Notes: generated by a model from the sequence alone, not told the origin. 64,000 nucleotides of DNA from Nitrospirota bacterium (GCA_021789215.1 JAJYJS010000006.1:25875-89874), one strand, 5' to 3'. Positions 20,326 to 35,245 are shown, numbered from the stretch's first letter. Made by a program: numbers and translations.

Positions 20326-20326
20326 G

Positions 20327-20350: not shown

Positions 20351-20397
20351 GGACTTTCAGCAAAATTGGCGATTTTAAGATAGGTCCTTATATCCCT

Positions 20398-20484: not shown

Positions 20485-20818
20485 AGTTCAAAACAGTTTT
20501 TCCCCTGGCGCCCCCTTCCCCCTGGGGGGCGGACACGGTTGCAATGTCTTATGTCACATAGACCGCTTCACGCCTCCCCGTTTATCCTCAGAGCATGATG
20601 AACACCAGGTTCAGCATATGGTCGTCAAAGAGGATAATGCGGCGCCTCCGGTGCACGGTGGAAAAGTCCTTCCGGTGCATACCCCTTGAGGACGACGAGA
20701 TATGCGCCCGCTGTTTCGGGGCCGATGGAGGCGGCGCGGCCGCGGTGGAAAAGGAAAAGGGAAGACGGGGCCCAAAAGGGAATTTTTTTTCAAACCAAAA
20801 AAGGAGGGTTTTCTGAAA

Positions 20819-20965
20819 ATGGTCTATGCAGGGCTGGCAGCGGCGTGTCTCATCGGTTTCGTGGCAGGCGTACTGGTCGAGCGCAGGAACAGGGCGCATA
20901 TGGAGTCCGCCATCGGGGACATCAAACAGGGCGTCCGGAAGCTTGGCGGCGGCAGCGGCAAATAA
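20819..20965 (+). CDS. Small single-pass membrane protein (48 aa), first gene of the cluster
   Basis: MVYAGLAAACLIGFVAGVLV... is preceded by AAGGAGGG. The track start at 20702 adds an Arg/Gly-rich non-genic extension. Confidence 0.5.
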   Translation: MVYAGLAAACLIGFVAGVLVERRNRAHMESAIGDIKQGVRKLGGGSGK

Positions 20966-20985
20966 GGGAGGAGGGATCAGGAAAA

Positions 20986-21378
20986 ATGGTTTTTCCGCTT
21001 GAGGCAGTCACGACGATTGGGGGGCTTATACTCCCGCCGGTATTCGACATCATAAAGAAAGCCTTCATAAAGAAGGGGGACGGCACGGCTGAGGCCACGC
21101 TCAACTGCCTGGCCGAGACGAAGCCCGATGCGCTTCCGGGCTACGTGGAGGCAAACGCGAAGCTGATGCAGGCCCGCACGGAGTGGTTCAACCGGGACGT
21201 GATAGGGCAGGCAAGCAGGTGGGTGGTCGACCTGAGGGCCGCGATACGGCCCGTGACGGTCTGCATGAGCATGTGCTTCCTGGGGATGGACGCCGGGAAG
21301 GCGCTCGCCATGGACCCCTCGACCAGGGCGGCGCTGCTTTTCATGGTGGCAAGCTGGTTTGGCGGAAGGCTCAAATGA
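20986..21378 (+). CDS. Putative holin-like membrane protein (130 aa, 2-3 hydrophobic segments)
   Basis: The start is preceded by GGGAGGAGGG. Hydrophobic segments are TTIGGLILPPVF, VTVCMSMCFLGM and ALLFMVASWFGG. The holin call rests on position and topology only. Confidence 0.4.
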   Translation: MVFPLEAVTTIGGLILPPVFDIIKKAFIKKGDGTAEATLNCLAETKPDALPGYVEANAKLMQARTEWFNRDVIGQASRWVVDLRAAIRPVTVCMSMCFLGMDAGKALAMDPSTRAALLFMVASWFGGRLK

Positions 21379-21722
21379 CGCCCGAATTCATAAAGACCTT
21401 CGTGAACGCGGGGGTCGGGGCCGCGATGGCCTTCGTGATACTGGTGGGGCTTTACAGGATAGCGGGCAGGCTGGGGCTGGAGTTCGTGAAGGCCCAGAAG
21501 GAGCAGGCCCAGGCCCTCGGCAGACAGGCGCAGAGCATGGAGGGGCTGAGGGACGCGATAGAGCTGTTCATAAAAAGGGACTATTCCGAGCACAGGGAGA
21601 TGCTCGTGATGCTCAGGTACATAGCCCAGAACCGGATGGGGCCTGAGCGCATAAGGCAGGAGCAGCCGGAAAAGACGGAGTTTTTTGCGAAAGGAGAAAT
21701 GGATGAGGTCAATCGACGCTGA
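21375..21722 (+). CDS. N-terminally anchored coiled-coil protein (i-spanin-like topology)
   Basis: ATGA overlap with the previous gene. A TM helix AGVGAAMAFVILVGLY is followed by the charged helical segment KAQKEQAQALGRQAQSMEGL. Confidence 0.4.
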   Translation: MTPEFIKTFVNAGVGAAMAFVILVGLYRIAGRLGLEFVKAQKEQAQALGRQAQSMEGLRDAIELFIKRDYSEHREMLVMLRYIAQNRMGPERIRQEQPEKTEFFAKGEMDEVNRR

Positions 21723-21996
21723 GAAGAACATGGCCGTGCGCCGGGCCATCCTCGACCTTCTGAAGACCGGGTATCCGGCGGCGCTCGACCTGAAGGTGCT
21801 GATGTTCTCGCTGGACAACCTGGGGTACCCGATGCCGGAAGAGGCCCTCCAGGCGCACCTCAGATACCTTCAGGAAAAGGGGCTCACAAGCTGCCGGACG
21901 AAAAGGGGCTACGGCTTCAGGTTCACCTATGCGTGCCTGACGGCCAAGGGGTGGGACTTCCTTGACGGCAACATCGAAGAGGAAGGCATAGGGTAG
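21703..21996 (+). CDS. Winged-helix DNA-binding protein (possible DNA-recognition component for packaging or a regulator)
   Basis: AAGGAG lies 6 nt upstream of the ATG. The pattern RRAILDLLK...LQAHLRYLQEKGL...YACLTAKGWDFLDG resembles a MarR/PadR-type wHTH. Confidence 0.45.
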   Translation: MRSIDAEKNMAVRRAILDLLKTGYPAALDLKVLMFSLDNLGYPMPEEALQAHLRYLQEKGLTSCRTKRGYGFRFTYACLTAKGWDFLDGNIEEEGIG

Positions 21997-22000
21997 GAAG

Positions 22001-22276
22001 ATGAGCGGGGCGATAACGGCAAAAAATAAAAACCTCGATATGAGGCTCATCAGGGACCTGCTCAGGCAGAAGAGGCGCTACGAGGCCTACTTCAAGGGGC
22101 GCGAGTCGGCGGGGCAGCAGATAGACAACTCCGCGCTCTCGGCCTACACGGGGGTCATCAAGACGGCGGCGGAGCTTTACAGGAAGGTGAAGACGGAGGA
22201 AAGGGGCGCAAGCCAGGAGGAGCTTGCTGCCATCGCGAGGGAGATACTTGAGAACGACTATGGAGTGCGGCGATAG
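22001..22276 (+). CDS. Hypothetical protein; positional candidate for the small terminase subunit
   Basis: 91 aa, basic and helical. Its stop is directly adjacent to the terminase large subunit start (TAGATG). Confidence 0.35.
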   Translation: MSGAITAKNKNLDMRLIRDLLRQKRRYEAYFKGRESAGQQIDNSALSAYTGVIKTAAELYRKVKTEERGASQEELAAIAREILENDYGVRR

Positions 22277-23650
22277 ATGAGCATACTGCTGCCGTACCAG
22301 AAAAGGTGGCTTGAGGACAGGAGCCCGCGCAAGATATGGCTTGCCGCGAGGCAGACCGGAAAGTCCTTCTCGCTGGCCCTTGAGGCCGTGATGGAGGCGC
22401 TTGAGAAAAGGCGCTCCACAAGCCTCGTCCTTTCTGCGTCGGAGAGGCAGTCCAGAGAGGTAATGGAAAAGGTGCTGACCCACCTCCGGTACCTCCACGC
22501 GCGGTCCGGGGAGAAAGTGTCCTCCGAGGATACCCGCGAGGAGGTGCGCCTGCCAAACGGTTCCCGCATAATATGCCTCCCGGCAAATCCGGACACGGTG
22601 CGCGGGTTTTCGGGCAACGTGTTCCTGGACGAGTTCGCCTTCCACAAGGATGCGGAGGAGATATGGCGCGCGATGTACCCCGCCGTGACCCGCGGCTTCA
22701 AGGTGCGCGTCTCCTCCACCCCAAACGGCAAAAACAGGAACCTTTTCCATGCCCTCTGGAGCCGTGAGGAAAAAAACGGTCTTTTCTCCCGCCACAGCAC
22801 CACCATTTACAAGGCCGTGGACGAGGGGCTCCCCATAAATGTGGACGAACTGCGGGCGGGGATAATGGATGCCGCCTCGTGGGCGCAGGAGTACGAGTGC
22901 AGGTTCCTTGACGAGGAGACCTCCTTCATCCCGTATGAACTGATAACGGCCTGCGAGGATGAAGGGGCGGCGAAAGACCTGAAGCCACTGGATACCGGTT
23001 TGCACCGGTATGACGGACAAAAAGATTTAAGCAGCCATTCCGGAGGCAGTAATCCGGAATCCAGCGGCTTTAAAGGTGACTTCTACCTTGGCCTGGACAT
23101 CGGACGCAGACACGACCTCACCGTCTTCTGGCTCTGGGAGAAAAAGGGAGACGTTTACTGGACGCGGATGGTGAGGGAGTTGAGGAACACCCCGTTTTCC
23201 ATACAGAGGGATTTTCTGTACGCGCTGATGGAGGGCTCCCTTGGCGTAAAGGTGAGGCGGGCGGCGATAGACGCAACGGGCATCGGGGCCCAGATGGCCG
23301 AGGAGGCGATTGACAGGTTCGGCCCCGTGGTCGAGCCCGTGCAGTTCACGCTCAATGTGAAGGAGGATTTGGCAGTGAGCCTCCGCAGGCTCATGGAGGA
23401 GCGCCGGGTGCGCATCCCCTCGCGGGCCGGCATACGGGAAGACTTCCACAGCATAAGGCGCGTCACGACCCCGGCGGGAAACACGCGCTTCAGCGCGGAA
23501 GGCAGTGATGACGGACATGCAGACAGGTTCTGGGCGGCGGCCCTGGGCATACACGCGGGCAAAAAGGCCCCCGCAACAGTCTTCGAGTACGAGGCCGCGG
23601 GGCGGAGGACATTTTTTCCAAGCAGCTTTAAAGGGCTTTTTTCTGACTGA
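22277..23650 (+). CDS. terL: Terminase large subunit
   Basis: N-terminal LLPYQKRWLED, Walker A AARQTGKS, Walker B VFLDEFAF, and a C-terminal nuclease-like region with acidic residues. 457 aa. Confidence 0.9.
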   Translation: MSILLPYQKRWLEDRSPRKIWLAARQTGKSFSLALEAVMEALEKRRSTSLVLSASERQSREVMEKVLTHLRYLHARSGEKVSSEDTREEVRLPNGSRIICLPANPDTVRGFSGNVFLDEFAFHKDAEEIWRAMYPAVTRGFKVRVSSTPNGKNRNLFHALWSREEKNGLFSRHSTTIYKAVDEGLPINVDELRAGIMDAASWAQEYECRFLDEETSFIPYELITACEDEGAAKDLKPLDTGLHRYDGQKDLSSHSGGSNPESSGFKGDFYLGLDIGRRHDLTVFWLWEKKGDVYWTRMVRELRNTPFSIQRDFLYALMEGSLGVKVRRAAIDATGIGAQMAEEAIDRFGPVVEPVQFTLNVKEDLAVSLRRLMEERRVRIPSRAGIREDFHSIRRVTTPAGNTRFSAEGSDDGHADRFWAAALGIHAGKKAPATVFEYEAAGRRTFFPSSFKGLFSD

Positions 23651-23665
23651 AAGGAGGCTGATAAA

Positions 23666-24847
23666 TTGAAGACCAGACCAGTCCTGGACGAGATAGCCGG
23701 AGCCAGGAACGACATATCGCTCTTTGGTGATTTCCTGCCGAAAAATGTTTTGCGGAACCCGGACAGGCTCCTGCGGTCAACCGGGAAGGGTATCGGGCTT
23801 TACGAGGAGCTTCTCTACGACCCCCAGGTGAGGGCATGCCTCCAGACCAGGAAGCTTGCGGTCGTGGGCAGGGAATGGGAGGTGGTGCCGGGGGGCGGAG
23901 CCCCGGAGGACGCCCGCATCGCGGACTTCGTGAAAGAGGCCCTGCTTGCCTTCGACTTTGACAGCGCAAGGACCGCGCTCCTTTCCGCCGTGGTGCTTGG
24001 CTTCAAGACGGCGGAGATAATGTGGGAGTATTCGGAGGGCTCCGTCTGGATAAGGGAGATGGCCGGAAGGGCCTCAAGCAGGTTCCGCTTCGACGCAGCG
24101 GGAAACCTGAGGCTCCTCACGCCCGGCAATATGTTTTACGGAGGCCCCGTGCCGGAAAGGAAGTTCCAGGTGTTCCGCTATGGGGGCGAAAACGGCTCGC
24201 CTTACGGCGACGGGCTTGGGGCAAGCCTCTACTGGCCCGTATGGTTCAAGAAGAACGCTCTCCGGTTCTGGATGGTGTTCGCGGAAAAGTTCGGCTCGCC
24301 CACCGTCATAGGCAAGTACCCGCCCGGCACGCCCAGGGAGCACCAGGACGCGCTGATGGGCGCGCTTGAGGCCATACAGCAGGAATCGGCGATAAAGATA
24401 CCGGAGACGATGCGGATAGAGCTGCTTGAGGCGCAGAGGAGCGGCGCCGTGAACACCTACGACACCCTTTGCGCGTTCCTCAACGGGGAGATCGCGAAGC
24501 TCCTCCTGGGGCAGACACTGACGACCGAAATCGGGCAGACGGGCTCCTACGCGGCAAGCAGGACGCACAACGAGGTGAGGATGGACTACATAAAGGCCGA
24601 TGCCGACCTGCTCTCGGGCGCGCTGAACAGGCAGCTTGTAAGATGGCTGGTCGATTTCAACTTCCCGGCCCCGAGGCCCGCCTCGCGCTACCCGAAACTC
24701 TGGATAAGACAATCGGGCGAGGAGGATTTAAAAGCCCTTGCCGAGAGGGACGCGCTGCTTCTCAAGATGGGGGTAAAGATCCCGGCCAGGTATTTTTACG
24801 GGACCTACGGCCTGCCCGAACCCGCGGACGGGGAGGAGACGCTTTGA
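23666..24847 (+). CDS. Portal protein, Mu gp29-like (DUF935 family)
   Basis: TTG start with AAGGAGG 8 nt upstream. LYEELLYDPQVRACLQTRKLAVVGREWEVVP fits the DUF935 pattern, and it sits right after terL. Confidence 0.8.
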   Translation: MKTRPVLDEIAGARNDISLFGDFLPKNVLRNPDRLLRSTGKGIGLYEELLYDPQVRACLQTRKLAVVGREWEVVPGGGAPEDARIADFVKEALLAFDFDSARTALLSAVVLGFKTAEIMWEYSEGSVWIREMAGRASSRFRFDAAGNLRLLTPGNMFYGGPVPERKFQVFRYGGENGSPYGDGLGASLYWPVWFKKNALRFWMVFAEKFGSPTVIGKYPPGTPREHQDALMGALEAIQQESAIKIPETMRIELLEAQRSGAVNTYDTLCAFLNGEIAKLLLGQTLTTEIGQTGSYAASRTHNEVRMDYIKADADLLSGALNRQLVRWLVDFNFPAPRPASRYPKLWIRQSGEEDLKALAERDALLLKMGVKIPARYFYGTYGLPEPADGEETL

Positions 24848-25239
24848 TAAGGATATCGATGAGCGGCGGGGAGATAGCGCGCTCCATCTCCCAAAGGGCT
24901 GGAGACCTTGGCCCGGCGCTGGAGCAGATAGGCGCAATGCTTGCCGGGTCCGTGCGGAGAAACTTTGACGAGGGCGGAAGGCCCGAAAAGTGGGAGCCGC
25001 TTAAAGGGAAAAACGCGGCGAGGACGCCGCTGGTCAAAACGGGCGGCCTCAGGGACTCCATACGGGCGGCGCTGGAAAACGGGGCCATAGAACTTCAAAG
25101 CCCCCTGCCCTATGCGTCTTTTCAGCAGGAGGGGACAAGGACGATACCCGCGAGGCCGTTTCTCGTGGTGCAGGAGGAGGACTACGAAAAGGCGGGGCGG
25201 ATAATAGCGGGATACCTTATGAAAGGAGGGGACGAGTGA
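24844..25239 (+). CDS. Virion morphogenesis protein, Mu gpG / P2 gpS-like
   Basis: WEPLKG...LVKTGGLRDSI...LPYASFQQEGTRTIPARPFL matches the tail_comp_S/gpG family pattern. TTGA overlap with the portal; ATG 24859 is an alternative start. Confidence 0.8.
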   Translation: MIRISMSGGEIARSISQRAGDLGPALEQIGAMLAGSVRRNFDEGGRPEKWEPLKGKNAARTPLVKTGGLRDSIRAALENGAIELQSPLPYASFQQEGTRTIPARPFLVVQEEDYEKAGRIIAGYLMKGGDE

Positions 25240-26114
25240 TGTGGACGGCGGTTTTCAAGTCAGGCACTCACACGGATTCGGAGGGCAGGACGAGGCACTG
25301 GAGCGACGAGGACCTGGACAGGATCGCCTCGCGGTACGACCCGGCGCGGCACGAGGCCCCGGTGGTCATCGGCCACCCAAGGGACAACGCGCCCGCATGG
25401 GGCTGGGTGGAGGGGCTGAAGAGAGAAGGCGGCCTGCTCTTTGCGAAGCTCAGGCTTGTGCCGGAGTTCGCGGAGATGCTAAGGAAGGGGCTTTTCAGGA
25501 AGCGCTCCATCTCGCTCTATCCGGATATGGGCCTGAGGCACATAGGCTTTCTGGGCGCGGCCGCGCCCGCCGTAAAGGGGCTGCCGGATGTCAGTTTCTC
25601 CGCCGGGGAAGACGCGACCGGCGTGGAAGTCGAATTCAAGGGAAAGGAGGCGAAAGAGATGAACGGCTTTATCGAGAGGCTTAAAAAATTTTTAAAAGAG
25701 GAGCTTGGCATCGAGACTGCCGATTTGAGGCAGAAGGAAAAAGAACTGGCGGACAGACAGGGCGCGCTCCGCAAGGCGGAAGCGGCGGCCTTCTGCGAAG
25801 GGCTCCTGAAAGAGGGCAGGGTCACGCCGGCCATGTTGAAGCAGGGGCTCCCAGGCTTCATCGAGGTGGTCTCAGGCATCCAGACCAGCCACGAGTTTGC
25901 CGGGGGCGAAGAGGCCCGGAGCCCGCTGGATTTCCTTAAAGGCTTTCTGAAGGCCCTGCCCGTGTGCGTGAGCTACCAGGAACACACGCCCGCACAGGAA
26001 GAACCCGATGAAAAAAGAAAGAGGCTCATCAGCCGGTACATGGAAGACCACGGCAGGCACACCTACAGGGACGCGCTCATCGCGGTATCGAAGGAACACC
26101 CGGAACTTTTTTAA
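25236..26114 (+). CDS. Capsid scaffolding / maturation protease protein (P2 gpO- / Mu gpI-like)
   Basis: The N-terminus FKSGTHTDSEGRTRHWSDEDLDRIASRYDP...VVIGHP...GWVEGLKREGGLLFAKL parallels the P2 gpO N-terminus as I recall it. The C-terminal half is a charged coiled coil. Confidence 0.7.
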   Translation: MMWTAVFKSGTHTDSEGRTRHWSDEDLDRIASRYDPARHEAPVVIGHPRDNAPAWGWVEGLKREGGLLFAKLRLVPEFAEMLRKGLFRKRSISLYPDMGLRHIGFLGAAAPAVKGLPDVSFSAGEDATGVEVEFKGKEAKEMNGFIERLKKFLKEELGIETADLRQKEKELADRQGALRKAEAAAFCEGLLKEGRVTPAMLKQGLPGFIEVVSGIQTSHEFAGGEEARSPLDFLKGFLKALPVCVSYQEHTPAQEEPDEKRKRLISRYMEDHGRHTYRDALIAVSKEHPELF

Positions 26115-26149
26115 GGAACGCGGGGGAGTTAAAAAACAAGGAGGGAAAA

Positions 26150-26578
26150 ATGATAGGACAGACATCTGGGATTGAGAAGGCGGCAAGGTGCGCCGCTCCC
26201 GTTGCCACCGCGTACACGATAGCGGCGTTCGGCGCGGATGACGACACGCTGGCCATCGCACAGGCCGGAACCGGCGCGCTGGTGGGAGTGTTCCAGCACA
26301 CGACCTCAACCGCCGGAGAGACCGTGAGGGTGATGCTCACGGGCATCTCCCGCGTAGTGCTCGGCGGGGCGGTGACGAGGGGCGACAGTGTCACCTCCGG
26401 CGCAAGCGGCATGGGGGTGGCCGCGACAAGGCACGCCCATACGGAAAACACCGCGGCGGCTTACACGCAGAACGCGGCCACACAGGCCGCGCCCGCCGTC
26501 AACACCCTGGGCGTCGCGCTTGCAAGCGGGGCCGCAGGGGACATCATACCCGTGCTGCTTTCCCAGGGCATGGTCTAA
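26150..26578 (+). CDS. Head decoration protein (DUF2190-like)
   Basis: 142 aa, Ala/Gly/Thr-rich, with GD.V motifs (VTRGDSVTSGASG). It lies immediately upstream of the major capsid gene, the usual DUF2190 position. Confidence 0.6.
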   Translation: MIGQTSGIEKAARCAAPVATAYTIAAFGADDDTLAIAQAGTGALVGVFQHTTSTAGETVRVMLTGISRVVLGGAVTRGDSVTSGASGMGVAATRHAHTENTAAAYTQNAATQAAPAVNTLGVALASGAAGDIIPVLLSQGMV

Positions 26579-26609
26579 AAACCCGGAAAGAAAGGAGGCG
26601 CGAATAAAA

Positions 26610-27539
26610 ATGCCTGAAACGAAATCGCTTCACGTGGACGCAATACTTTCAGAGATGTCCGTAAAGTACAGGAACGAGGCTATGATATGGCCGCTCCTCA
26701 TGCCAGTTGTGAAGGTGCAGAAGCGCTCTGACAAGTTCTTCGTCTATCAGAAGGAGGACAGCTACCGCCTGGCCGATGACGCCGTTGCGCCAAAGGGCCT
26801 GCCCAACGAGATAACATGGGGGGTGCTGGAGGACAACTACTCGGTGGTCGACCACGCCCTTGGCGACTGGCTCCCGCAGGAGGTGATAGACAACGCCGAC
26901 GGCCCCATCCAGCCCGAGGCCGACACGGTGGACTTCCTTAACATGCTCCTGGACGTGAGGCAGGAAAAGAGGGTGGCCGATATCGTCTTTTCCCAGGCTA
27001 CCTACCCGGCGGGCAACCAGACCGCCCTCTCCGGCACCGCCCAGTGGGGCGGCACGACGGACGACCCCGTGGGCGACGTTATGAACGCCGTCGAGGGGTG
27101 TTTCATAAGGGCCAACACGCTGGTGTTCGGGGCCGAGGCGTGGGCCGCGTTCAGGAAGCTTCCGGAGGTGCTTGAGGCCGTCAAGTCCGTGAACACGGGC
27201 GCAAACGGGTTCGCCACGGCCGGCGAGGTCGCCGCCCTCTTCGAGGTGGAGCACGTGCTTGTTGGGAGGGCGCGCTACATCACATCCAAAGAGGGGCAGC
27301 CGTCCGCTTACACAAGGCTCTGGGGCAAACATTGCGCCGCGCTCTACACGGCCAGTAACCCCGGCCTGAGGAGCATCACCTTCGGGCTCACCTTCTCCGA
27401 GATGGCGCGCGAGGTCCAGAGGGACTTCGACCCCAAGCGCGGCGTGAAGGGCGCTCACTATATAAAGGCCGCCTGGAACTCCGACGAAAAGGCCGTCGCG
27501 CCGGAGCTGGGCTGCCTGATAAGAAACGCCGTGGCGTAA
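26610..27539 (+). CDS. Major capsid protein (HK97-fold, gpE-like family)
   Basis: The start is trimmed to MPETKSLHVDAIL... with AAAGGAGG upstream. 309 aa. The position after scaffold and decoration fits, and it is followed by a strong stem-loop. Confidence 0.8.
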   Translation: MPETKSLHVDAILSEMSVKYRNEAMIWPLLMPVVKVQKRSDKFFVYQKEDSYRLADDAVAPKGLPNEITWGVLEDNYSVVDHALGDWLPQEVIDNADGPIQPEADTVDFLNMLLDVRQEKRVADIVFSQATYPAGNQTALSGTAQWGGTTDDPVGDVMNAVEGCFIRANTLVFGAEAWAAFRKLPEVLEAVKSVNTGANGFATAGEVAALFEVEHVLVGRARYITSKEGQPSAYTRLWGKHCAALYTASNPGLRSITFGLTFSEMAREVQRDFDPKRGVKGAHYIKAAWNSDEKAVAPELGCLIRNAVA

Positions 27540-27559
27540 AAAAACAAAAAAACTTCCGG

Positions 27560-27588
27560 GCGGGGCGGTTTTTTAATCGCCGCCCCGC
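27560..27588. other. GC-rich stem-loop downstream of the capsid gene
   Basis: GCGGGGCGG-N11-CCGCCCCGC. On the plus strand it is flanked by A-runs, and the T-tract is on the minus strand. Confidence 0.6.
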
Positions 27589-27628
27589 ACTCTCAAAAAA
27601 AACTCAAAAAGGGGAAAAAAGAAAAAAG

Positions 27629-28036
27629 ATGGCATACTGCACGCACTCCGATATCGCAAAGACAGCCCCGGAGGAAGACCTCATCGCCCTCACCGACGAC
27701 GAGAAACTGGGTGTGGCAAACGAGGAGCGCATCACCGGCGCAATCGAAAGGGCGGATTCGCTGATAGACGCCTACTGCAGGCAGGCCTATGGCGTGCCGT
27801 TTACGCCCGTGCCCGAGCTGATAAAATCCCTCTCGGCCGACATCGCCCTTTACAACCTATACACAAGAAAGGTGGACGCGGTGCCCGAGGCGCGCTCCCA
27901 AAGGTACAGGGACGCCCTCTCCGTCCTCGATGCAATCGCAAAGGGCACCATGCCGCTTCCCCTGGCCGGAAACGGCGGCCCGGAAAGCAGCGCCGCGGAA
28001 AAGGTCTTCACGGACGAGGGCCTCGGAGGGTACTGA
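27629..28036 (+). CDS. Head-tail connector protein, Mu gp36-like (DUF1320)
   Basis: MAYCTHSDIAK...LIALTDDE...RADSLIDAYCRQAYGVPFTPVPELIKSLSADIALYNLY parallels the FluMu gp36 pattern. Confidence 0.75.
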   Translation: MAYCTHSDIAKTAPEEDLIALTDDEKLGVANEERITGAIERADSLIDAYCRQAYGVPFTPVPELIKSLSADIALYNLYTRKVDAVPEARSQRYRDALSVLDAIAKGTMPLPLAGNGGPESSAAEKVFTDEGLGGY

Positions 28037-28362
28037 TGCTTACGATAATCGAGGGGGACCGGGTGCTGCTTGAGTACCAGCTCCTTAAAGACAGGAAGCC
28101 CGTAAACATCAAAGGATGCACCTTCATGCTCCGGGTTAAGCGGAGGCCGGAGGCGCGGGCAAAGGCGCTCCTGCCGCCGGTCAGGGGCTCAATCAGAAAC
28201 GCGAGGGCGGGGAGGTTCGCGTTCCTCCTGGAAGGGGCGGCCCCCGCAAGCGGGTTCATGGAGATAACGATGGAAAGGCCCGGCAGAAAGATAAGGCTCA
28301 CCCCGCCGGGGGGCGTTGAGATAAAAATAACCGGAAAAGAGGGGCAAGGGAGAGGGGAATGA
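28036..28362 (+). CDS. Hypothetical head-tail joining protein
   Basis: 108 aa. The start overlaps the previous stop (TGATG), and there is an ATGA overlap with the next gene. Confidence 0.4.
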   Translation: MLTIIEGDRVLLEYQLLKDRKPVNIKGCTFMLRVKRRPEARAKALLPPVRGSIRNARAGRFAFLLEGAAPASGFMEITMERPGRKIRLTPPGGVEIKITGKEGQGRGE

Positions 28363-28787
28363 AATTCGGGGACATGGAGGAAAAAATCCTCGCGGCGCTT
28401 GAGGGCGGCCTGCCGTATCTGAAAACCGTCGGCACATACGCGGGGCAGTTCGAGGCGGACGTAAAGACGATGCCCGCACCGTTTCCCGCGGCATATGTGG
28501 TCTACAGGGGCTCCTCTTTCGAGCCGGTGGACTCGGCAAACCATATGGAGACGGCGGACTTCACGGTGCTTGCGGCCGCAAGAGGTTTTTCAGGGGGGGA
28601 AGACCTCAGAAAATCGGGATACGGCATCTACCGGATGACGGACGACATCATCCTCACGCTCACCAACCAGAGGTTCGGCCTGGATATCGCGCCGGTAAGG
28701 CCGCTCAGGCTCTCGCTGGTCTTCGCCTCGAAGACCGTTGCCGTTTACGCGGTGGACTTCCGCACAAGCTTCGACAGGACATTTTAA
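28359..28787 (+). CDS. Mu gp37-like protein (DUF1834), head-tail joining / tail completion
   Basis: 142 aa. LPYLKTVGTYAGQFE...PAAYVVYRGSSF...FTVLAAAR fits the gp37 family as recalled. Its position after gp36-like also fits. Confidence 0.6.
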   Translation: MKFGDMEEKILAALEGGLPYLKTVGTYAGQFEADVKTMPAPFPAAYVVYRGSSFEPVDSANHMETADFTVLAAARGFSGGEDLRKSGYGIYRMTDDIILTLTNQRFGLDIAPVRPLRLSLVFASKTVAVYAVDFRTSFDRTF

Positions 28788-28807
28788 TCAGGAGGTGAAA
28801 TAAAAAC

Positions 28808-29851
28808 ATGGGCGCAACAGGCACCGAATCAAGGGCGGCATTCCGCAGGGCGGCCTCGTGGGGCACGCCATCGGCAGCGGGCGCGAATGACGGACTGCTG
28901 GTCCTGCCGCACACGCTGAAGAAGGAAAGGCCCGTCCTGCCGGACGACTCCCTCGGCATCTGTTTTCAGACCGATGCGGCGGACGGCGGCATCAAGGTCG
29001 AGGGGGACATCCCGGCATATCTCAGGTACGACTCCCTGGACCTTCTGCTTGCGCTTGCGATGGGGCAGACGGCGGGCACTCCGGTACAGCAGGGCGCAGC
29101 GGAGGCGTATCTCCAGAGCCTCAAACTGAAGGAGAACACGGACGGGCTTTTCGGCACGTTTTGCGTCAGCAACGGCGTGAACATAGACGAATACGGCTCC
29201 GTGAAGATAACAGGGTTCACGATAAAGGGAGAGGCGGGGAAACCGGTCGAGATAAGCTTCCACTCGGTCGCAAACGACAGGACAACAAATTCGGCCCTCA
29301 ACACAACGGCCTCGTTCGCGGCAGTAAGCCTCTTCGAAAAGGCCAACCGGGTGCTATTCAGCCAGGGCGTCTTCCGGCTGAACCCGCAGGCGGACGCGGC
29401 GCTCGCGGACCCGGACAAAATCTACCCCTCCGCATTCGAGCTTTCCTTCAAGAGAAAAATGAAAGGGATATACGGCGCGGGCGCGCAGGCGGACAGGGTA
29501 GACGAGCCCTCCAACGACGGCCAGCCGGACATAAGGCTAAAGCTAACGTTCCCCAGGTATACCCAGGCGGCAAAGGGGTATTTCGAGGACTGGGACACGC
29601 AGAGGAACAAAAAAATGGACGCCGTCTTCACGGGCGCGCAGATAGCGGCCCCGTACAACAGGTTTATGAGGCTCCAGCTTCCGAACCTCAAGTTCTCGCA
29701 GGTGGAGCTGCCAATGGAAAGGGGCATCCTGAAAAGTCCGGTGGAGTTTGTCTGCCTCGGGTGCGATACAGCACCCGCGGGCATGGCGGGCATAACGATG
29801 CCCTTCCAGATAGACCTCATGAACCGCCAGGGCACGGACGTGCTGGGGTAA
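28808..29851 (+). CDS. Major tail (tube) protein, non-contractile type
   Basis: 347 aa with AGGAGG upstream. It is the first large ORF after the connectors and directly precedes the frameshifting chaperone pair. There is no separate sheath plus tube pair. Confidence 0.55.
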   Translation: MGATGTESRAAFRRAASWGTPSAAGANDGLLVLPHTLKKERPVLPDDSLGICFQTDAADGGIKVEGDIPAYLRYDSLDLLLALAMGQTAGTPVQQGAAEAYLQSLKLKENTDGLFGTFCVSNGVNIDEYGSVKITGFTIKGEAGKPVEISFHSVANDRTTNSALNTTASFAAVSLFEKANRVLFSQGVFRLNPQADAALADPDKIYPSAFELSFKRKMKGIYGAGAQADRVDEPSNDGQPDIRLKLTFPRYTQAAKGYFEDWDTQRNKKMDAVFTGAQIAAPYNRFMRLQLPNLKFSQVELPMERGILKSPVEFVCLGCDTAPAGMAGITMPFQIDLMNRQGTDVLG

Positions 29852-29956
29852 AGGTGTGGACAGGGGGCTGCGCCTCCAATCCCCCTCGTTTAACGGCGGA
29901 AAGGCGGTACGAAAAATCCAAAAAGACAGGGCGCAGCAAGCGGCGCCCCTACGGAA

Positions 29957-29992
29957 CCCCTCGCCCTTAAAGGCCGGGGGTGAGGGAATGAC
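29957..29992. repeat. GC-rich palindromic repeat ending GGAATGAC inside the tube-chaperone gap
   Basis: CCCCTCGCCC-TTAAAGGCC-GGGGGTGAGGG-AATGAC. The 175-nt non-coding gap is unusual in an otherwise overlapping gene array. Confidence 0.6.
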
Positions 29993-30026
29993 AGGGCCAA
30001 GGCAATAAAAAGGAGGTCTTTCTTTA

Positions 30027-30404
30027 ATGGAGATAGGAGGGTTGCAGCGCGGCGATTTCGCGGTATGGATGCCCTTCGGCCAGGACGCCGAGGTGCTGAT
30101 ACGCTACGTGGACCGCGAGGAGCTTGAGGAGATAAGGAGAAAATCGGCCACAACAAGATGGGACGGCAGGGGCAGCGTGGAGCATACGCTTGACTATTTG
30201 CAGGCGGACATCCTGCTTGGACGCGCTTCAGTGCGGGGCTGGAAAGGTTTTACCGCAAACGGCGAGCCCTTTCCCTACAGCGGGGAAAACCGCGATTTCC
30301 TCATGAGAAAAAGCGTGGAGTTCGCCCGCTTCGTGAACTCCGCCTGCATGGACATGCAAAGACTTGCCGGACAGGAGCGGGCGCAGAAGAGAAAAAACTC
30401 CTGA
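30027..30404 (+). CDS. Tail assembly chaperone (lambda gpG analogue)
   Basis: 125 aa with AAGGAGG upstream. It ends 4 nt after a slippery heptamer, and a second frame continues to the tape-measure start. Confidence 0.7.
   Translation: MEIGGLQRGDFAVWMPFGQDAEVLIRYVDREELEEIRRKSATTRWDGRGSVEHTLDYLQADILLGRASVRGWKGFTANGEPFPYSGENRDFLMRKSVEFARFVNSACMDMQRLAGQERAQKRKNS
30392..30398 (+). promoter_or_regulatory. Programmed -1 ribosomal frameshift slippery heptamer A_AAA_AAC
   Basis: The zero frame reads AGA AAA AAC TCC TGA. The -1 frame from 30392 is open (KKLLSHIRARLDYPGVACANC...) through to the stop at 30704-30706. Confidence 0.7.
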
Positions 30405-30706
30405 GCCACATCAGGGCGAGGCTCGATTACCCTGGTGTGGCGTGCGCGAACTGCATGGACATGGAGGAAAAGGACGGGGCTGTGCCCCCGTGCAGGGGCG
30501 AAGGAGGCTGCCCGGTGCCTGCCGTCTCACCCGGCGAGGAGCGCATCCTCCAGATGAGGTCCACGCTTATAAGGCTGAAGGGGCTTGCGTGCGCCGGGGC
30601 CATACTGGGCGCATACGGGGCGGCAAGGGAGGATTTGGAATTCCTGGCATTTATCGAATCGGAGCTGAGAGAGATGAAAAAGGAGGACAAACAGCAAAAT
30701 GGCTGA
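30392..30706 (+). CDS. T-extension of the chaperone (gpGT analogue), reached only by -1 frameshift
   Basis: The -1 frame has no stop between 30392 and 30706. Its end overlaps the start of the tape-measure-position gene by 8 nt. It contains CX2C-X12-C-X5-C. Confidence 0.6.
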   Translation, partial: KKLLSHIRARLDYPGVACANCMDMEEKDGAVPPCRGEGGCPVPAVSPGEERILQMRSTLIRLKGLACAGAILGAYGAAREDLEFLAFIESELREMKKEDKQQNG

Positions 30707-31250
30707 AATAAAGCTCACCATAGAGGCCGAGGACAGGGCGTCGGACGTCTTTATGGCGGTAGCGGGCGCGGTGGACAACATAGGCTCCGCCGTCTCCGAC
30801 GCCGCCCTGAGGACTGGTTCTCTGGGAGACGCGCTCGACGCACTGCCGCTCTCGAAAACCCTTTACCTGGACGTCTCGGAGGCGGTGCAGGCGGCAAGCG
30901 CGGTCTCCGCCGCGCTGGAGTCCATCCCGGACATCTCCTACAAGGACGTAATCCTCAGGTACTTCACGCAGGCCTCCCCGGTGATGCCGTTTTCGGAGGG
31001 AATGGAGATGATCGGCCTCAAGATGAAATCGCTTCCGGTGGAGACAACCCACACGGTAAGGTTTTTTACCGGCCTTGACGGCGGCGCACAGCCAACGGTA
31101 AAAGGCGGCGGCAATATCAGCATCGGCCCGTTTTACTTTAACGGCAAAAATCCGCCTGAAGCCTTGCAGATAGAGGCCCAGATCGCGGACTCGATAAAAT
31201 CGGGGCGGAGCCCGATCGTGGCGGCCTTGGCGAAAGCGGGAATAAAATGA
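30699..31250 (+). CDS. Tape-measure-position protein, unusually short (183 aa)
   Basis: It lies immediately after the G/GT pair and has an Ala-rich helical N-terminal half (AVAGAVDNIGSAVSDAALRTGSLGDALDAL...AVQAASAVSAALESI). Confidence 0.5.
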   Translation: MAEIKLTIEAEDRASDVFMAVAGAVDNIGSAVSDAALRTGSLGDALDALPLSKTLYLDVSEAVQAASAVSAALESIPDISYKDVILRYFTQASPVMPFSEGMEMIGLKMKSLPVETTHTVRFFTGLDGGAQPTVKGGGNISIGPFYFNGKNPPEALQIEAQIADSIKSGRSPIVAALAKAGIK

Positions 31251-31268
31251 AGAGGATTTTTTTCACGG

Positions 31269-31295
31269 GTCATACCGGCGAAGGCCGGTATCCAG
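31269..31295. repeat. Palindromic repeat, hairpin type (GTCATACCGGC-GAAG-GCCGGTATCCAG)
   Basis: The same hairpin occurs at 20327 and 46958. It translates to the pseudo-peptide VIPAKAGIQ and generates the spurious ORF 31247..31441. Confidence 0.85.
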
Positions 31296-31368
31296 TGATG
31301 TTGAGGCATGCCGGAATGACCGGAAAAATTATACTCAGGGGCGCTGCTTGCTGCGCCCGGTCTTTGCA

Positions 31369-31442
31369 GTCATTGCGAGGAGCGGAGCGACAAAGCAATC
31401 TGAAGGCCTGGGGCCGGATTGCTTCGCTTTGCTCGCAATGAC
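31369..31442. repeat. Palindromic repeat, long type (GTCATTGCGAGG...GCAATC // GATTGC...CTCGCAATGAC)
   Basis: 74-bp inverted-repeat element. A related copy lies at 49879..49963. Confidence 0.85.
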
Positions 31443-31458
31443 GGGGAGAAAAACACAT

Positions 31459-32835
31459 ATGAAATCCTGCTATCAAAACATTTTGGAGACCTCGGCCGTC
31501 ACGCTTTCCTCCGGGGCGGCGGACCTCTCGTACCCGCTCTACAGGCTCTGGGACAGGGACATAGGGCGGCCCTTCAAGGCGGCGGACACGGGCACCCTTG
31601 AGATAAAAATAGACCAGGGCGCGGCCCCGCTTGCCATAGACAGGCTCATTATTCCGGCGGGGCACAACCTCTCCGGCGCAAGGCTCAAGGTGAGCGGCTC
31701 CGACGACGATATAACGTACAGGACCCTGCTTGACGCCTCTCTGCCGGACAACTCTCTTATAAACAGGGAACTTGCCGCAGCGGACGATTTCAACAACAGC
31801 TCGCTGGATGCAAACCTGTGGGGCCTGCTCCTGGGGGGCGGCGCAGGGGCCGTGGCGAGCGAGACCACATCACTTGATTTAAAGACGGCCCAGGCGGCCG
31901 AATACTCCGCCATATGCCTTAAGACCGCATTCGCCAGGGCGGCGGGCCAGTCCCCGCAGACAATAACAAATACGCTTGGCGTGGGAGCCAACGCGCTGTA
32001 TTCGCTTAGCCTCGTGCGCTCCGCCGCCCTGCCCTCAGCCGCCTTCGACAGCTGGGCGCAAAGGGTGGTGCTCACACGGGTAACCTCGGCCGGAAACCTC
32101 CAGTTCGTGTACTACGGCGCAAACGGGACGACATATTACTTCAACGGCGCAAGCGGCCAATGGGGCACCCCCATGAACGATGCTTACACGGCAGCCCTTA
32201 ACAGGCGGCTGCGAATCCGCCTTGAAAACAGCGGCTCCGCGTGGAGGCTCACTCTCCGCGACAACTCCAATGCGGACGCCCTCCTCAGGCAGACCCCGTG
32301 GGTGGGCTGGGCGGACACTTACGCGGACGGCACACCGGAGTGGCTCATAGCCGGCGACCCTTCGAACTCATTCAACTTTGGCGAGATGAACGTTTATCTT
32401 TTCGACACGGGGCTTTCCGCGCCCGCGACAAAAAGATACATGAAGGTTGCCGTGACGGCCTCCCCTGCCACCCCGCAGATGCCGGAGCTTTTTTTAAGCC
32501 CCACCTATATCTGGGAAAAACTCCCCGCGCGTCCGGCAGGGCCGCTTGAGGACGTCTTTAACGTGGAGGCCCAGACGGCCACGAGCGGGCGCGACCACTT
32601 CCTCGTCCACGGCAGCCCCAAGCGGCAGCGGGTCTACCATGTGACAAACGCCGGTTCCGCGCAGTACGCAAGCATAAAGGCGCTCTGGGGCGCGTGGGGC
32701 GGAGCAAAACCCTTCTGGCTCTGCGACCATGAGGGAGACTGGATTTTCGGGAAGCTCTCCCGCCCCCTAAACCTGAAGGAAGAAGGAAGCAACAAATACA
32801 GCTTCGATTTTGAATTTCTGGAGGTCCTGCCATGA
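31459..32835 (+). CDS. Distal tail / baseplate-type protein (458 aa)
   Basis: The start is trimmed to MKSCYQNILE, because the track start at 31348 reads through the repeat element. It follows the tape-measure-position gene and has an ATGA overlap with the next gene. Confidence 0.5.
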   Translation: MKSCYQNILETSAVTLSSGAADLSYPLYRLWDRDIGRPFKAADTGTLEIKIDQGAAPLAIDRLIIPAGHNLSGARLKVSGSDDDITYRTLLDASLPDNSLINRELAAADDFNNSSLDANLWGLLLGGGAGAVASETTSLDLKTAQAAEYSAICLKTAFARAAGQSPQTITNTLGVGANALYSLSLVRSAALPSAAFDSWAQRVVLTRVTSAGNLQFVYYGANGTTYYFNGASGQWGTPMNDAYTAALNRRLRIRLENSGSAWRLTLRDNSNADALLRQTPWVGWADTYADGTPEWLIAGDPSNSFNFGEMNVYLFDTGLSAPATKRYMKVAVTASPATPQMPELFLSPTYIWEKLPARPAGPLEDVFNVEAQTATSGRDHFLVHGSPKRQRVYHVTNAGSAQYASIKALWGAWGGAKPFWLCDHEGDWIFGKLSRPLNLKEEGSNKYSFDFEFLEVLP

Positions 32836-35183
32836 CCACCGTCTCTCAGGCGCGGGACTCCTCGCGCATAAGGCCCGTCTACCTGGTGGAGATAACGCTG
32901 GGGAACTCCGGCCCCACGCTCTATTTCTCCGACCGGAACCTGACCGTGGCCGGGCAGATATACGAGGACTACCTGGCGGACCTCTCGGGCCTGGGCGACG
33001 AGGTGCACCGCGCGGACTCAAGCGCCCTGAACTCTGACATCACCCTCACGTTCAAAAACGGCAGGATAAGCCGCCTGGGCACGGACTACAACTACCTCAT
33101 CGAGCTGGGCGGCACCTACCCCTTCGAGGCCGCCATCTGCCAGATATCGGAGACATACCTTGACGACGCGGGCACCCCCTCGGACACGGCCCTTATCTTC
33201 AAGGGGGCGCTCGATTCGCCCTCCGATATAGACCTGATGGGTTTCAAGTGCAAGGTAAGCTCGATGGCCTTCCTCATGGACAAGCGATGGGCGCAGTCCC
33301 AGATAAACCTGACGGACTACCCCAACGCTTACGAGGACGTGGGCAAGTACGAGCCCATAGTCTACGGCCGGAACATCCTCATGCCCGCCCTCCGGACGGA
33401 CTGGGGCGCGAAGACAACCTTGGTTGCCGACATCACGGCCGCGCAGATGACGCTGGAGCTTTCGGACGCCTCGCGCTTCCCCGCCTCGGGCGACATCGTG
33501 ATAGACAGCGAGCAGATACACTACACATCGAAGACGGGCAACGTCCTCAATATCTACCAGAGGGGTGCGGGGGGCACAACGGCCCAGCCCCATGGGGCCG
33601 GGGCCGACGCCTGGCAGTACCAGGCGGCCTACGACAGCCTGCTTGCGGGCCACCCGCTGGCAAGTGTGGGGGACGTCTTCGCGGAGATAGCGGGCAAGTT
33701 CTGGAGGGTGACAAGCGGGGTGACCTCCGTGGTGGTGAACGGCAAGCAGGTCCTCCGGGCCACGGATGTCCTCAGCGTGAGGGGCGCGATAGACAACATG
33801 AGCATCACGGACGGGATAACGATAAACGACGGGATATCGGTCTCCCAGGGCTCCCACAGCCACAATATCGGCGGGCTCACGAGCACCATCTATGGCAATA
33901 ACGCCTCCAGTTACGGCCAGCACAACACGGCCGTCCAGGGGGCCCTCACGAACCTCTATGACACAAACCAGGGCACATACTGCTATTCGGGCAAGGCCGA
34001 CAGCTTCACAGGCTGGTTTACCGTGACGGTGAACTTCCCAGCCTATTCCGGCCCGGCCCCCTCTGCCGTGAGGGTGTGCATCACGCACCAGAGCTGGAAT
34101 AACGGCAGCACGGGCAATGACTATGTACGGCTGACCTATCCGCAGACGATAAACCTGGACAAGTCCAACACCAAGGTCACGCAAAAGTTCAACGTGGGGA
34201 CCACGGTGCCCGCGGCCGCCACCTATATCGTCGACTGGGACGGCTCGACAAGCCAGGCCTGGGGCTATGTCTTTGAGATTTGGCTGGAGATAGACACGGC
34301 CGCCACGACGTCGAACCCGGCCGCGGGGGTTGCCAAGAGCGGCACGGTCTCGAAATCGGGCACGGTCTCGATGAGCGGCGAGGTCGTCTCCACCCACACG
34401 GTGGAGCGCCTCCATGCCGTGGTGAGCGGGTACCAGGACGACGCCCTGGGCACCTACACCGGCACGCCCTTAGCCGTCATCGAGCAGCCCAATCACGTGT
34501 TCAGGCACTTCCTCGCGGCCCTCACCGGGCTCTTTCCCACGACGGACATAGACTTCCACGTGGCCGGGGCGCTCTATGCCTCATGGGGCTACAAGTTCGC
34601 CTTCGTGATAGACGGCCAGATAAGGCCGTGGGACTTCCTGAAAAAACTCGCCTTCGAGTGCCGGAGCACGCTCTCCTATCAGGCGGGCCTCTGGAGCCTT
34701 GAGGCCATACCGGACGCGGCCCCCGCCCCGGTGAAGACCGTCTCGAAGGATGATTTGGCCGGGCAGTTCGCCAAGTTCAAGTTCGCGAAGATGCCCTGGA
34801 CGGAGCTTGCCAACAGCCTCCAGGCGAGCTTCGCCGTCCTCTACTCCCGGATACCGCAGAAGAGCGAGTCCCCGTGGCTTGGCACGGTAAAGGCCGATGA
34901 CGCGGCCTCCCAGGCCAAATACGGCAAGTACCAAAAGACATTCGAGTTCGAGGCTGTGCGCGACCAGGCGATGGCCCAGAGTGTGCTTGGCCACATCCTC
35001 ACCGAGCTTAAAACCCCGCTCATGACCGTGGAGTTCCCCGTCTTCTGGGAGGACTTCGGCCTGAACGTGGGCGACACTGTGCAGATAGACAACCCGCTCT
35101 ACGGCGGCAGGCTCTTCTTCATCGAGAAGATGGCCCGCCAGAGCCCCTCCACCGCCCTCATCACGGCAATGGAGTGGTGGTAG
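32832..35183 (+). CDS. Large tail tip / host-specificity-type protein (783 aa)
   Basis: It is the last and largest ORF. The N-terminus is RIRPVYLVEITLGNSGPTLYFSDRNLTVAGQIYEDYL, there is an internal Ser/Thr/Gly/Asn-rich beta region, and a triple (K/M)SG(T/E)VS micro-repeat. Confidence 0.55.
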   Translation: MTTVSQARDSSRIRPVYLVEITLGNSGPTLYFSDRNLTVAGQIYEDYLADLSGLGDEVHRADSSALNSDITLTFKNGRISRLGTDYNYLIELGGTYPFEAAICQISETYLDDAGTPSDTALIFKGALDSPSDIDLMGFKCKVSSMAFLMDKRWAQSQINLTDYPNAYEDVGKYEPIVYGRNILMPALRTDWGAKTTLVADITAAQMTLELSDASRFPASGDIVIDSEQIHYTSKTGNVLNIYQRGAGGTTAQPHGAGADAWQYQAAYDSLLAGHPLASVGDVFAEIAGKFWRVTSGVTSVVVNGKQVLRATDVLSVRGAIDNMSITDGITINDGISVSQGSHSHNIGGLTSTIYGNNASSYGQHNTAVQGALTNLYDTNQGTYCYSGKADSFTGWFTVTVNFPAYSGPAPSAVRVCITHQSWNNGSTGNDYVRLTYPQTINLDKSNTKVTQKFNVGTTVPAAATYIVDWDGSTSQAWGYVFEIWLEIDTAATTSNPAAGVAKSGTVSKSGTVSMSGEVVSTHTVERLHAVVSGYQDDALGTYTGTPLAVIEQPNHVFRHFLAALTGLFPTTDIDFHVAGALYASWGYKFAFVIDGQIRPWDFLKKLAFECRSTLSYQAGLWSLEAIPDAAPAPVKTVSKDDLAGQFAKFKFAKMPWTELANSLQASFAVLYSRIPQKSESPWLGTVKADDAASQAKYGKYQKTFEFEAVRDQAMAQSVLGHILTELKTPLMTVEFPVFWEDFGLNVGDTVQIDNPLYGGRLFFIEKMARQSPSTALITAMEWW

Positions 35184-35245
35184 GCTTAGTGCTATTTTAA
35201 AAGGTATGTTTTCCGCCATCGGGGAACATATCTTTAATTGAAGAA

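Follow-up and report, generated by a model that had tools for sequence, protein, structure and literature searches.

A 64,000-nucleotide stretch of DNA from a Nitrospirota bacterium (GCA_021789215.1, JAJYJS010000006.1:25875-89874; hereafter the window) contains a run of phage head and tail genes on the plus strand, and the question it raises is whether these genes are the remains of a dead prophage or belong to an element kept by its host. A preliminary description, made from the sequence of the window, had taken positions 20819-35183 for a cluster of 19 structural genes lying between rel and a cytochrome operon, and had proposed a domesticated particle locus, possibly a gene transfer agent (GTA). 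The cluster proved to be real, with small corrections. We favour, with moderate confidence, the prediction that it encodes the structural part of an element which descends from a Mu-like siphophage, is non-autonomous and inherited with the chromosome, and has a GTA-like or PBSX-like mode of action.

The operon and its counterparts in other genomes

Based on open reading frame (ORF) listing and translation, the operon was delimited to 20595-35267 of the window (plus strand, about 14.7 kb) and contains 21 ORFs. Twenty of these, rather than 19, lie within 20819-35183, a 108-amino-acid (aa) ORF at 28036-28362 having been omitted earlier; one more conserved ORF, g00 (20595-20816), is located upstream. 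The operon encodes a lysis remnant, the large terminase (TerL), a Mu-type portal, protease/scaffold, capsid, connectors, tail tube, frameshifted chaperones and tail tip, and the Mu-type morphogenesis module (gp29 portal, gpG, I/Z protease-scaffold, gp36 and gp37) is present. All 21 ORFs are full length compared with homologues of 60-77% identity. On the left the operon is flanked by genes for ATP synthase, an aminotransferase and Rel, and on the right by genes for cytochrome c, a 4Fe-4S protein, NrfD, Smr and further housekeeping proteins, in agreement with the housekeeping flanks first described. The contig has a GC content of about 59%; the locus-tag prefix of the metagenome-assembled genome (MAG) is M0Z59, and the genes of the window are tagged M0Z59_031xx.

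No tRNA gene and no integrase gene were found in the 64-kb window, and tblastn searches with the early proteins of phages B3 and BcepMu detected no MuA, MuB, Mor, GemA, Mu F, repressor or gp26/27 in it. The earlier statement that tRNA, integrase, transposase and repressor are lacking was confirmed. Neither the window nor the loci with a GerE-type regulator (see below) encode the DDE transposase MuA and the ATPase MuB of Mu-like transposable phages, and the Mor/C-type late activators and GemA of such phages were likewise missing. At the borders of the operon there are only short repeats of the repetitive extragenic palindromic (REP) type, with no att sites or target duplications; no Mu-type ends were identified for the unit, and an Rfam scan of 19500-36000 returned zero matches. 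A recognisable small terminase was not found in the operon: the Mu gp26/gp27 type is absent, and the candidates are g04 (a winged-helix protein) and g05. A capsid-forming phage-inducible chromosomal island or satellite was also considered and was dropped, since tails are encoded and there is no integrase or replication module.

Relatives were gathered from context look-ups and from a scan of species-representative genomes (loci are designated L plus a number). At least six other genomes carry an equivalent unit with identical left and right ends. Units starting with a GerE-type regulator were found at L005/L011 (Nitrospirae B_NIT_04), L007/L008/L012 (JdFR-88), L010, L016 and L272, and in each of two further pairs (regulator and portal, or regulator and hub) the two genes probably share a contig. 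The left end consists of a divergent PAS-LuxR (GerE-type) regulator gene, often a gene for a stand-alone receiver, a conserved promoter and a small Cys4 ORF. In the structural-only relatives the order is regulator, receiver (often), M15 peptidase (sometimes), homologues of g02-g05, TerL, a short portal and the rest; at the right end the homologue of g20 comes last, with host genes directly after it (L173, L174 and L175). L005 and L173 together represent one whole unit of Nitrospirae B_NIT_04, which is flanked at either end by housekeeping genes and has no recombinase gene; this unit, like the window, holds structural genes without genes for self-propagation. Another structural-only cluster (L176) is situated in a closed 5.5-Mb Syntrophorhabdaceae chromosome. 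Nitrospirota (Thermodesulfovibrionia-type MAGs) and at least one genome of the Syntrophorhabdaceae contain relatives of the unit; a portal identical to that of the window is found only within the source organism, and the next relatives show at most 73% identity. The identical boundaries, together with the conserved promoter and regulator, argue against independent random deletions of dead prophages.

The relatives are of two kinds, structural-only units and true Mu-like prophages or phages with Mor, GemA, MuA/B, Mu F and gp26/27. Employing tblastn, MuA/MuB were found in L039, L050, L084, L193-L203 and others, and in none of the GerE-type loci. Relatives in IMG/VR are 36-39 kb in length and carry MuB, Mor, GemA and MuF; none of them carries the regulator, and a regulator scan of IMG/VR gave only unrelated helix-turn-helix (HTH) matches. 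With these Mu-like phages as nearest relatives, the proposed Mu-type origin, independent of the GTA of Rhodobacter capsulatus (RcGTA), is upheld. In a neighbour-joining tree of portals, the window, L005, L010, L007 and L267 form one clade, all five loci of which yielded no Mor, GemA, MuA, MuB or MuF (the sequence of L267 ends upstream of g04).

Two related elements are present in the Syntrophorhabdaceae chromosome (OY762209.1). One (L013/L176) is the structural-only cluster, which starts with a GH108 endolysin gene and has housekeeping genes upstream; the other (L014), a Mu-like prophage, encodes Mor, gp26/gp27 and Mu F. The portals of both are 63-64% identical to that of the window. The cluster of Thermodesulfovibrionales Kow0025 (L175) encodes a 986-aa SASA-domain protein (1486-4446) between gp36 and gp37 and has a Mu gpT-type capsid, which shows that modules have been exchanged in this family. 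Genes located some 5 kb upstream of the unit in L007 match the 3' flank of the L175 cluster (MoCF_biosynth-HNH).

The units occupy orthologous positions in different hosts. L007, L010 and L179 (a locus in the same MAG as the window, see below) are orthologous isc-GerE loci beside Rrf2-TusA-NifS-NifU (72-77% identity for NifS, 80% for the AAA protein), and the window, L005, L016 and L272 adjoin a cytochrome/4Fe-4S/NrfD/Smr block. Five concatenated cluster proteins showed 69% identity among the window, L005 and L010 and 62-64% to L007, and the host proteins at the shared locus showed 77-82% identity between L179 and L010 and 68-82% to L007. Cluster and host proteins share the same topology, with the cluster evolving about 1.3-1.4 times faster. 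The ratio of nonsynonymous to synonymous substitution rates (dN/dS) was 0.12-0.41 for cluster genes, not near 1 as in a decaying locus, and dS was 0.85-1.9, compared to 0.9-1.35 for host genes; dS is near saturation and the ratios are rough. Relative synonymous codon usage of the cluster correlated with that of the host at r = 0.97 (0.98 between two halves of the host set), so that the host-like codon usage noted before was reproduced. These results showed that the operon is under purifying selection, is compositionally native to its host and diverges in step with it; vertical transmission with co-evolution is indicated by a small sample (4-6 genomes). The shared boundaries, promoter and regulator, the orthologous sites, the co-divergence and the dN/dS values all support, as a candidate, the domesticated particle locus that had been preferred to simple decay.

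The inversion that separated the operon from its regulators

The operon had been described as lying between rel and the cytochrome operon and as having no repressor. Two loci showed that it was not inserted there and that it does have regulators elsewhere. L179, tagged M0Z59_106xx, has the gene order PyrG(-) KdsB(-) HtrA(+) PIN-TRAM(+) IspD(+) IspF(+) M17(+) o75(-) receiver(-) regulator(+) Rrf2 TusA NifS NifU TPR AAA; its regulator side is orthologous to L007 and L010, and no structural operon follows the receiver gene. L093, which holds the closest relative of the window's rel (74% identity), continues from rel into IspF(-) IspD(-) PIN-TRAM(-) HtrA(-) KdsB(+) PyrG(+), so the IspF-to-PyrG block after rel in L093 is the block found after the receiver gene in L179. 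The homology of the window to the regulator-promoter spacer of L005 begins near 20485. A single inversion, with breakpoints 3' of rel and in the interval between the receiver stop codon and the promoter, reproduces both junctions in the observed orientations, and we infer an ancestral layout of isc operon - regulator | receiver - promoter - operon - cytochrome block. We conclude that one chromosomal inversion separated the operon from its regulators and placed it after rel; because it explains both junctions, the operon was split from its regulators, not inserted at rel. The regulator pair is intact and remains at isc (Rrf2-TusA-NifS-NifU), on a different contig binned into this MAG, and any regulation of the window operon must now act in trans.

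The region after rel varies between genomes. L093 (74%) and L094 (66%), the two closest rel loci in JGI metagenomes, share atp-bioF-rel with the window; neither has the operon or the cytochrome genes downstream, and no empty site is definable from them. In L093, a nucleotidyltransferase/HEPN-type toxin-antitoxin pair (5889-6516) lies directly downstream of rel. In L179, a 75-aa membrane-anchored protein with two CxxCH motifs is encoded directly after the receiver (8142-8369, minus strand), at the position of the promoter in the relatives.

In the window, the junction zone between rel and the element (20326-20485), the probable inversion breakpoint, contains a rel-proximal REP-like hairpin, ATACCGGC-n4-GCCGGTAT, and a REP-like sequence. 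About 230 nt upstream of the first gene, together with the g00 ORF, can be aligned across the window, L005, L007, L010 and L016. Based on this five-way DNA alignment and a motif scan, the promoter/operator region was placed at 20486-20594 (plus strand), with the elements GACAC, TGTCAyATrGAC and TTTATCCTC directly before the first ATG. There is no match to the sigma-70 -35/-10 consensus in the region upstream of the operon, which probably fits an activator-dependent promoter. Since the small Cys4 ORF after the promoter aligns across the relatives, g00 belongs to the operon.

The regulator of the element is a protein of about 175 aa with a GerE/LuxR HTH, and a profile search retrieved more than 110 relatives, mostly from Nitrospirae. 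One of these, P0230/P0282 (MDA8170134), is 53% identical to the L005 regulator; its neighbours are tagged M0Z59_10605 and M0Z59_10650, which places it in the same MAG as the window. A structural model of the regulator (pLDDT 85) predicted a PAS-like N-terminal domain and a LuxR-type HTH, the architecture also of VqmA of vibriophage VP882. The best match of the model was the VqmA-DPO complex of that phage (7dwm, E 4e-6), followed by LasR/RhlR/SdiA and EL222; the TM-scores were about 0.33, and sequence similarity is confined to the HTH. Because of the low TM-scores, the predicted resemblance to VqmA is a lead and not an assignment. In the relatives the regulator gene adjoins its presumed target, the lysis/morphogenesis operon, and this conserved divergent linkage suggests that the regulator controls the operon promoter.

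A second regulator-receiver pair, with a divergent receiver, was found on a third contig of the MAG (L177/L178; M0Z59_0578x-0580x; GC 51%). It adjoins genes for two uncharacterised proteins of the 200-aa class, a T7_gp14-like protein, a serine resolvase and a tyrosine integrase, and may be part of another mobile or phage-derived element with the same type of regulator.

Intergenic DNA of the window contains at least three families of short REP-like palindromes, with two copies inside the operon. The family ATACCGGC-n4-GCCGGTAT is found at 20328-20348, 31270-31290 and 46958-46980, the family CATTGCGAGG...CTCGCAATG at 31368-31445 and 49882-49945, and the family CCCCTGTGG-caaa-CCACAGGG at 35311-35331. 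Logan contig L001 (SRR33270670, 15,025 bp), an independent assembly, corresponds to 20330-35354 of the window and breaks at both operon borders. Its ends are likely repeat-induced assembly breaks, with strain polymorphism for the inversion as the alternative; we treated them as such, rather than as excision or polymorphism, because both lie in REP-bearing intergenic DNA. Contigs L001-L004 encode an identical portal and match the window without a single difference over up to 14.5 kb.

Genes of the operon

The operon opens with what appears to be a lysis region. The product of g00 (20595-20816, plus strand, as are all genes below) is a zinc-ribbon-like Cys4 protein of 73 aa, similar in BLASTP to the N-terminus of the L005 M15 peptidase (50% identity, E 7e-10); no Pfam or NCBIfam match was obtained for it. 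It is apparently unannotated in the deposited MAG, as a look-up gave no NCBI protein accession. The homologue of g00 is fused or adjacent to the M15 peptidase in L005, and an M15 peptidase is present between g00 and g02 in L005, L007, L016 and L272. The window lacks the peptidase domain and keeps only the Cys4 N-terminal part and g01 (20819-20965), a 48-aa protein with one hydrophobic helix that is probably holin-like (translation; weak phrog_3879); L010 is also without the peptidase. That the preliminary description noted no recognisable endolysin reflects an absence specific to lineages rather than a property of the unit. An endolysin may be encoded elsewhere, as it is for RcGTA, or, alternatively, release may be impaired. 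The 130-aa membrane protein g02 (20986-21378) is 64-66% identical to its homologues in L005 and L007 and gave no match in family searches; it is probably part of the lysis cassette, because the M15 endolysin precedes it in the relatives. An assignment of g02 to GTA_holin_3TM was dropped, there being no Pfam match. A 115-aa protein with an N-terminal transmembrane helix, g03 (21375-21722), is kept in both GerE-type and Mor-type relatives.

Packaging genes follow. g04 (21703-21996) encodes a winged-helix protein (phrog_436, 1e-10; HTH_12, weak; NCBIfam VpaChn25_0724, 3e-7), and g05 (22001-22276) a basic protein of 91 aa that abuts TerL; the latter has no family match, and its position before TerL is conserved in the relatives. 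Together the two occupy the position of the small terminase, which in known GTAs is without a sequence-specific DNA-binding domain (PMC11841831). The large terminase (22277-23650) was recognised by Terminase_6N (8e-21), Terminase_6C (1e-17) and phrog_5909 (5e-50) and has the Walker motifs AARQTGKS and VFLDEFAF. The portal (23666-24847, 393 aa; Portal_Mu, 1e-112) is of the Mu type (DUF935) in a short form, as judged from homologue lengths and the neighbour-joining tree: the N-terminal extension of about 100 aa in prophage relatives is missing.

No Mu F (gp30) gene lies between the portal gene and that for the Mu gpG-like neck or tail-completion protein (24844-25239; Phage_tail_S, 1e-9; phrog_26, 2e-20). 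The head maturation protease (25236-26114; phrog_976, 4e-72; Mu-like_Pro, weak) has a scaffold-like C-terminal part and is followed by a small head protein, scaffold or decoration (26150-26578; phrog_673, 'head scaffolding', 1e-12), for which there was no Pfam DUF2190 match. The major capsid protein (26610-27539) matched phrog_1005 (8e-72) and PDB entry 3bjq (2e-20). In the connector region are the Mu gp36-like head-tail adaptor (27629-28036; Phage_Mu_Gp36, 2e-33), g13 (28036-28362, 108 aa; phrog_1084, 5e-5; conserved in L005 and L010) and the Mu gp37-like tail terminator (28359-28787; Phage_Mu_Gp37, 1e-20; Phage_tail_terminator, 2e-5). The tail tube (28808-29851) was identified by Phage_tube_2 (5e-15).

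The tail assembly chaperones G (30027-30404) and G-T (to 30706) were recognised by phrog_313 and frame analysis. G-T results from a shift into the -1 frame at A_AAA_AAC (30392-30398), a site that closely precedes the stop codon of the chaperone gene; this frame is free of stop codons over 30191-30706. As had been stated, the programmed frameshift site is intact, and it is kept in four relatives (L010, L174, L175 and L176). The 183-aa product of g18 (30699-31250) has no family match and occupies the putative tape-measure position, where L174 and L175 have homologues of 245-262 aa. With Pfam and PHROGs, the earlier family calls were reproduced for TerL, portal, gpG-like protein, protease, major capsid protein, gp36, gp37, tube, chaperone and the tail protein of the last gene; those for DUF2190 and tape measure were not. 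Between g18 and g19 there are REP-like hairpins of the host type (31268-31445), of repeat types also found at 20328, 46958 and 49882.

Two tail proteins end the operon. The distal tail protein g19 (31459-32835, 458 aa), identified by tblastx to L010 and gene tables, has no family or PDB sequence match. A central segment of about 215 aa is absent from its 243-245-aa homologues (L010, 20200-20931; L173, 9267-10004) and may be a variable, receptor-facing domain. The last gene, g20 (32832-35183), encodes a predicted baseplate hub or tail-tip protein (Phage-tail_3, 1e-6; AlphaFold model, pLDDT 82). The fold of the model matched the hub of T5/DT57C (1e-16 to 9e-18), lambda gpJ (7e-14), T1, the baseplate of the Mu-like phage JBD30 and the RcGTA tail protein 6tba_8A (E 1e-8); g19 and g20 had no match when their sequences were searched against the PDB. 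A hairpin resembling an intrinsic terminator (35246-35267, plus strand) closes the operon.

Nature of the element

The review PMC9662315 lists as features of GTAs (viriforms) the lack of self-propagation, vertical transmission, packaging of host DNA in particles that hold at best part of their own genome, and a small induced subpopulation under cellular control; three GTA clades are classified there. As to cellular control, a PAS-LuxR regulator and a receiver are conserved beside the unit and lie at a separate locus in this MAG.

Like the element, RcGTA (Rhodogtaviriformidae) is inherited with the chromosome, has its head-tail genes in an operon of about 15 kb without genes for replication or integration, and forms a short siphophage-type tail, one protein of which gave the fold match to g20 mentioned above. 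RcGTA receives LuxR-family and response-regulator inputs. Its 'genome' is multilocus, with regulators at other loci (PMC5026251). Unlike RcGTA, whose head and packaging module is of another type, the element has a Mu-type module (DUF935 portal, gpG, gp36 and gp37); its host belongs to another phylum, it has been read from its genes, and no sequence-level homology to RcGTA appeared in the PDB sequence searches. Homologous head-tail genes, which would make it RcGTA-like in the strict sense, were not found, the only link being the distant fold match of the tail hub. The parallel to RcGTA drawn in the preliminary description holds for organisation and not for homology.

VSH-1 of Brachyspira hyodysenteriae and PBSX of Bacillus subtilis, prophages in a domesticated or defective state whose particles contain packaged host DNA, also consist of chromosomal structural and lysis genes without genes for self-propagation; their proteins are unrelated to those of the element, whose regulators are a PAS-LuxR protein and a receiver. 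The genome of VSH-1 is cited as divided in PMC11841831, and the element is likewise divided in this MAG. The Mu-like siphophages (Pseudomonas B3 and the JBD30/D3112 group) and Nitrospirae prophages L018-L021 and L026 share with it the portal, gpG, protease/scaffold, capsid, gp36 and gp37 in the same order, and the baseplate of JBD30 matches the fold of its hub; portals of the Nitrospirae prophages and IMG/VR phages are 57-61% identical to that of the window. These phages are 36-39 kb long, compared to 15-18 kb for the element, which differs from them in lacking MuA/MuB, Mor/C, GemA, repressor, Mu F (gp30), gp26/gp27 and the N-terminal extension of the portal.

We read the operon as a vertically inherited, non-autonomous, GTA-like element that lacks genes for transposition, integration, replication and lysogeny and would be passed on only with the chromosome. 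The full unit, as seen in the relatives, comprises the divergent regulator, the receiver (often), an activator-type promoter and one operon running from lysis, packaging, head and connector genes to a non-contractile tail with the hub last. The regulator pair would switch the operon on under some signal, and particles would assemble. The terminase would then fill heads with available host DNA, the step that would make the element a GTA, and cells would lyse and release the particles, in a GTA-like or PBSX-like manner. Only tentatively do we propose the narrower reading, an unrecognised GTA family of anaerobic Nitrospirota and their neighbours; such a family may have arisen from Mu-like siphophages by independent exaptation through loss of the early/transposition region, with a switch formed by a PAS-LuxR regulator that senses a small molecule and by a receiver, and, in this organism, a multi-locus arrangement as in RcGTA and VSH-1.

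A dead prophage remnant, that is, the late half of a Mu-like siphophage still intact through shortness of time and with decay begun, would account for the absence of regulator, endolysin, transposase and Mor from the window, for an M15 catalytic domain (present in L005, L007, L016 and L272) reduced to the N-terminal Cys4 part g00, for the REP-like hairpins inside the operon and for the failure to detect a canonical promoter. We nevertheless regard it as rather unlikely, given 21 ORFs that are full length against 60-77% identical homologues, dN/dS of 0.12-0.41, the retained frameshift site and promoter motifs, the same two boundaries in at least six diverged genomes and a regulator pair intact in the same MAG. 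The particles may instead have been domesticated for something other than transfer, for instance for killing in the manner of PBSX, for kin discrimination or as a defence decoy, with packaged DNA incidental. This fits the sequence equally well: a dedicated regulator likewise governs the terminase, head and tail genes that are retained in defective prophages of the PBSX type, and the evidence from conservation and host linkage is equal to that for a GTA. The sequence does not separate killing from transfer; the element has a simple siphophage tail with a gpJ/pb3-like hub, and no toxin or bacteriocin-like domain was found in Pfam and PHROGs searches of the cluster proteins. We consider such a role unlikely. 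Very improbable, in our view, is a helper-dependent mobile element that moves horizontally with transposase and replication functions supplied in trans by co-resident Mu-like prophages. Such prophages, with closely related modules, do exist in these phyla, in one case on the very chromosome that has a structural-only cluster (L013/L176 and L014); related units are present in two phyla, and in the portal tree the regulator-linked units make up two sub-clades with Mor-type prophages between them. Against this stand the orthologous positions (isc locus for L007, L010 and L179; cyt-Fer4-NrfD for the window, L005, L016 and L272), a divergence that parallels host genes, a codon usage equal to the host's, a window location explained by a host inversion rather than by transposition, and the failure to identify Mu-type ends or target duplications.

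Several points weigh against the GTA-like, vertically inherited element that we favour. The placing of L179 and the window contig in one organism comes from metagenomic binning. The window copy is without adjacent regulators and without the M15 endolysin, and the loss of both could equally be a first step of decay. The two portal sub-clades of regulator-linked units, separated by Mor-type prophages, may reflect recombination with infecting phages or repeated origin. The co-divergence argument draws on four to six genomes with saturated dS. A Mu-type capsid with retained scaffold may hold more than 15-18 kb, in which case the capacity would not be below the element's own length as in a GTA. Known here from genes, the element is a credible candidate GTA.

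The literature searched describes neither a GTA nor any comparable element from Nitrospirota, and none with a Mu-type head. To our knowledge, only a handful of independently domesticated GTAs are known, and all were found by experiment in cultivated bacteria. If the GTA-like reading is true, the element would be a candidate GTA whose viral ancestor is a different one, namely a transposable phage of the Mu type; it is found in an anaerobic phylum that is uncultivated and of environmental importance, and its regulator and promoter are recognisable. The inversion between regulator and operon would be a clean example of how a multi-locus GTA 'genome' originates, and, should particles and the packaging of host DNA be demonstrated, specialists would find the element highly interesting. 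The combination of regulator, promoter and short portal, with no Mu F and no Mor, would serve as a sequence signature for metagenomes. Exaptation of head-tail modules would then be a recurring event, and gene exchange in Thermodesulfovibrionia-type communities would become testable.

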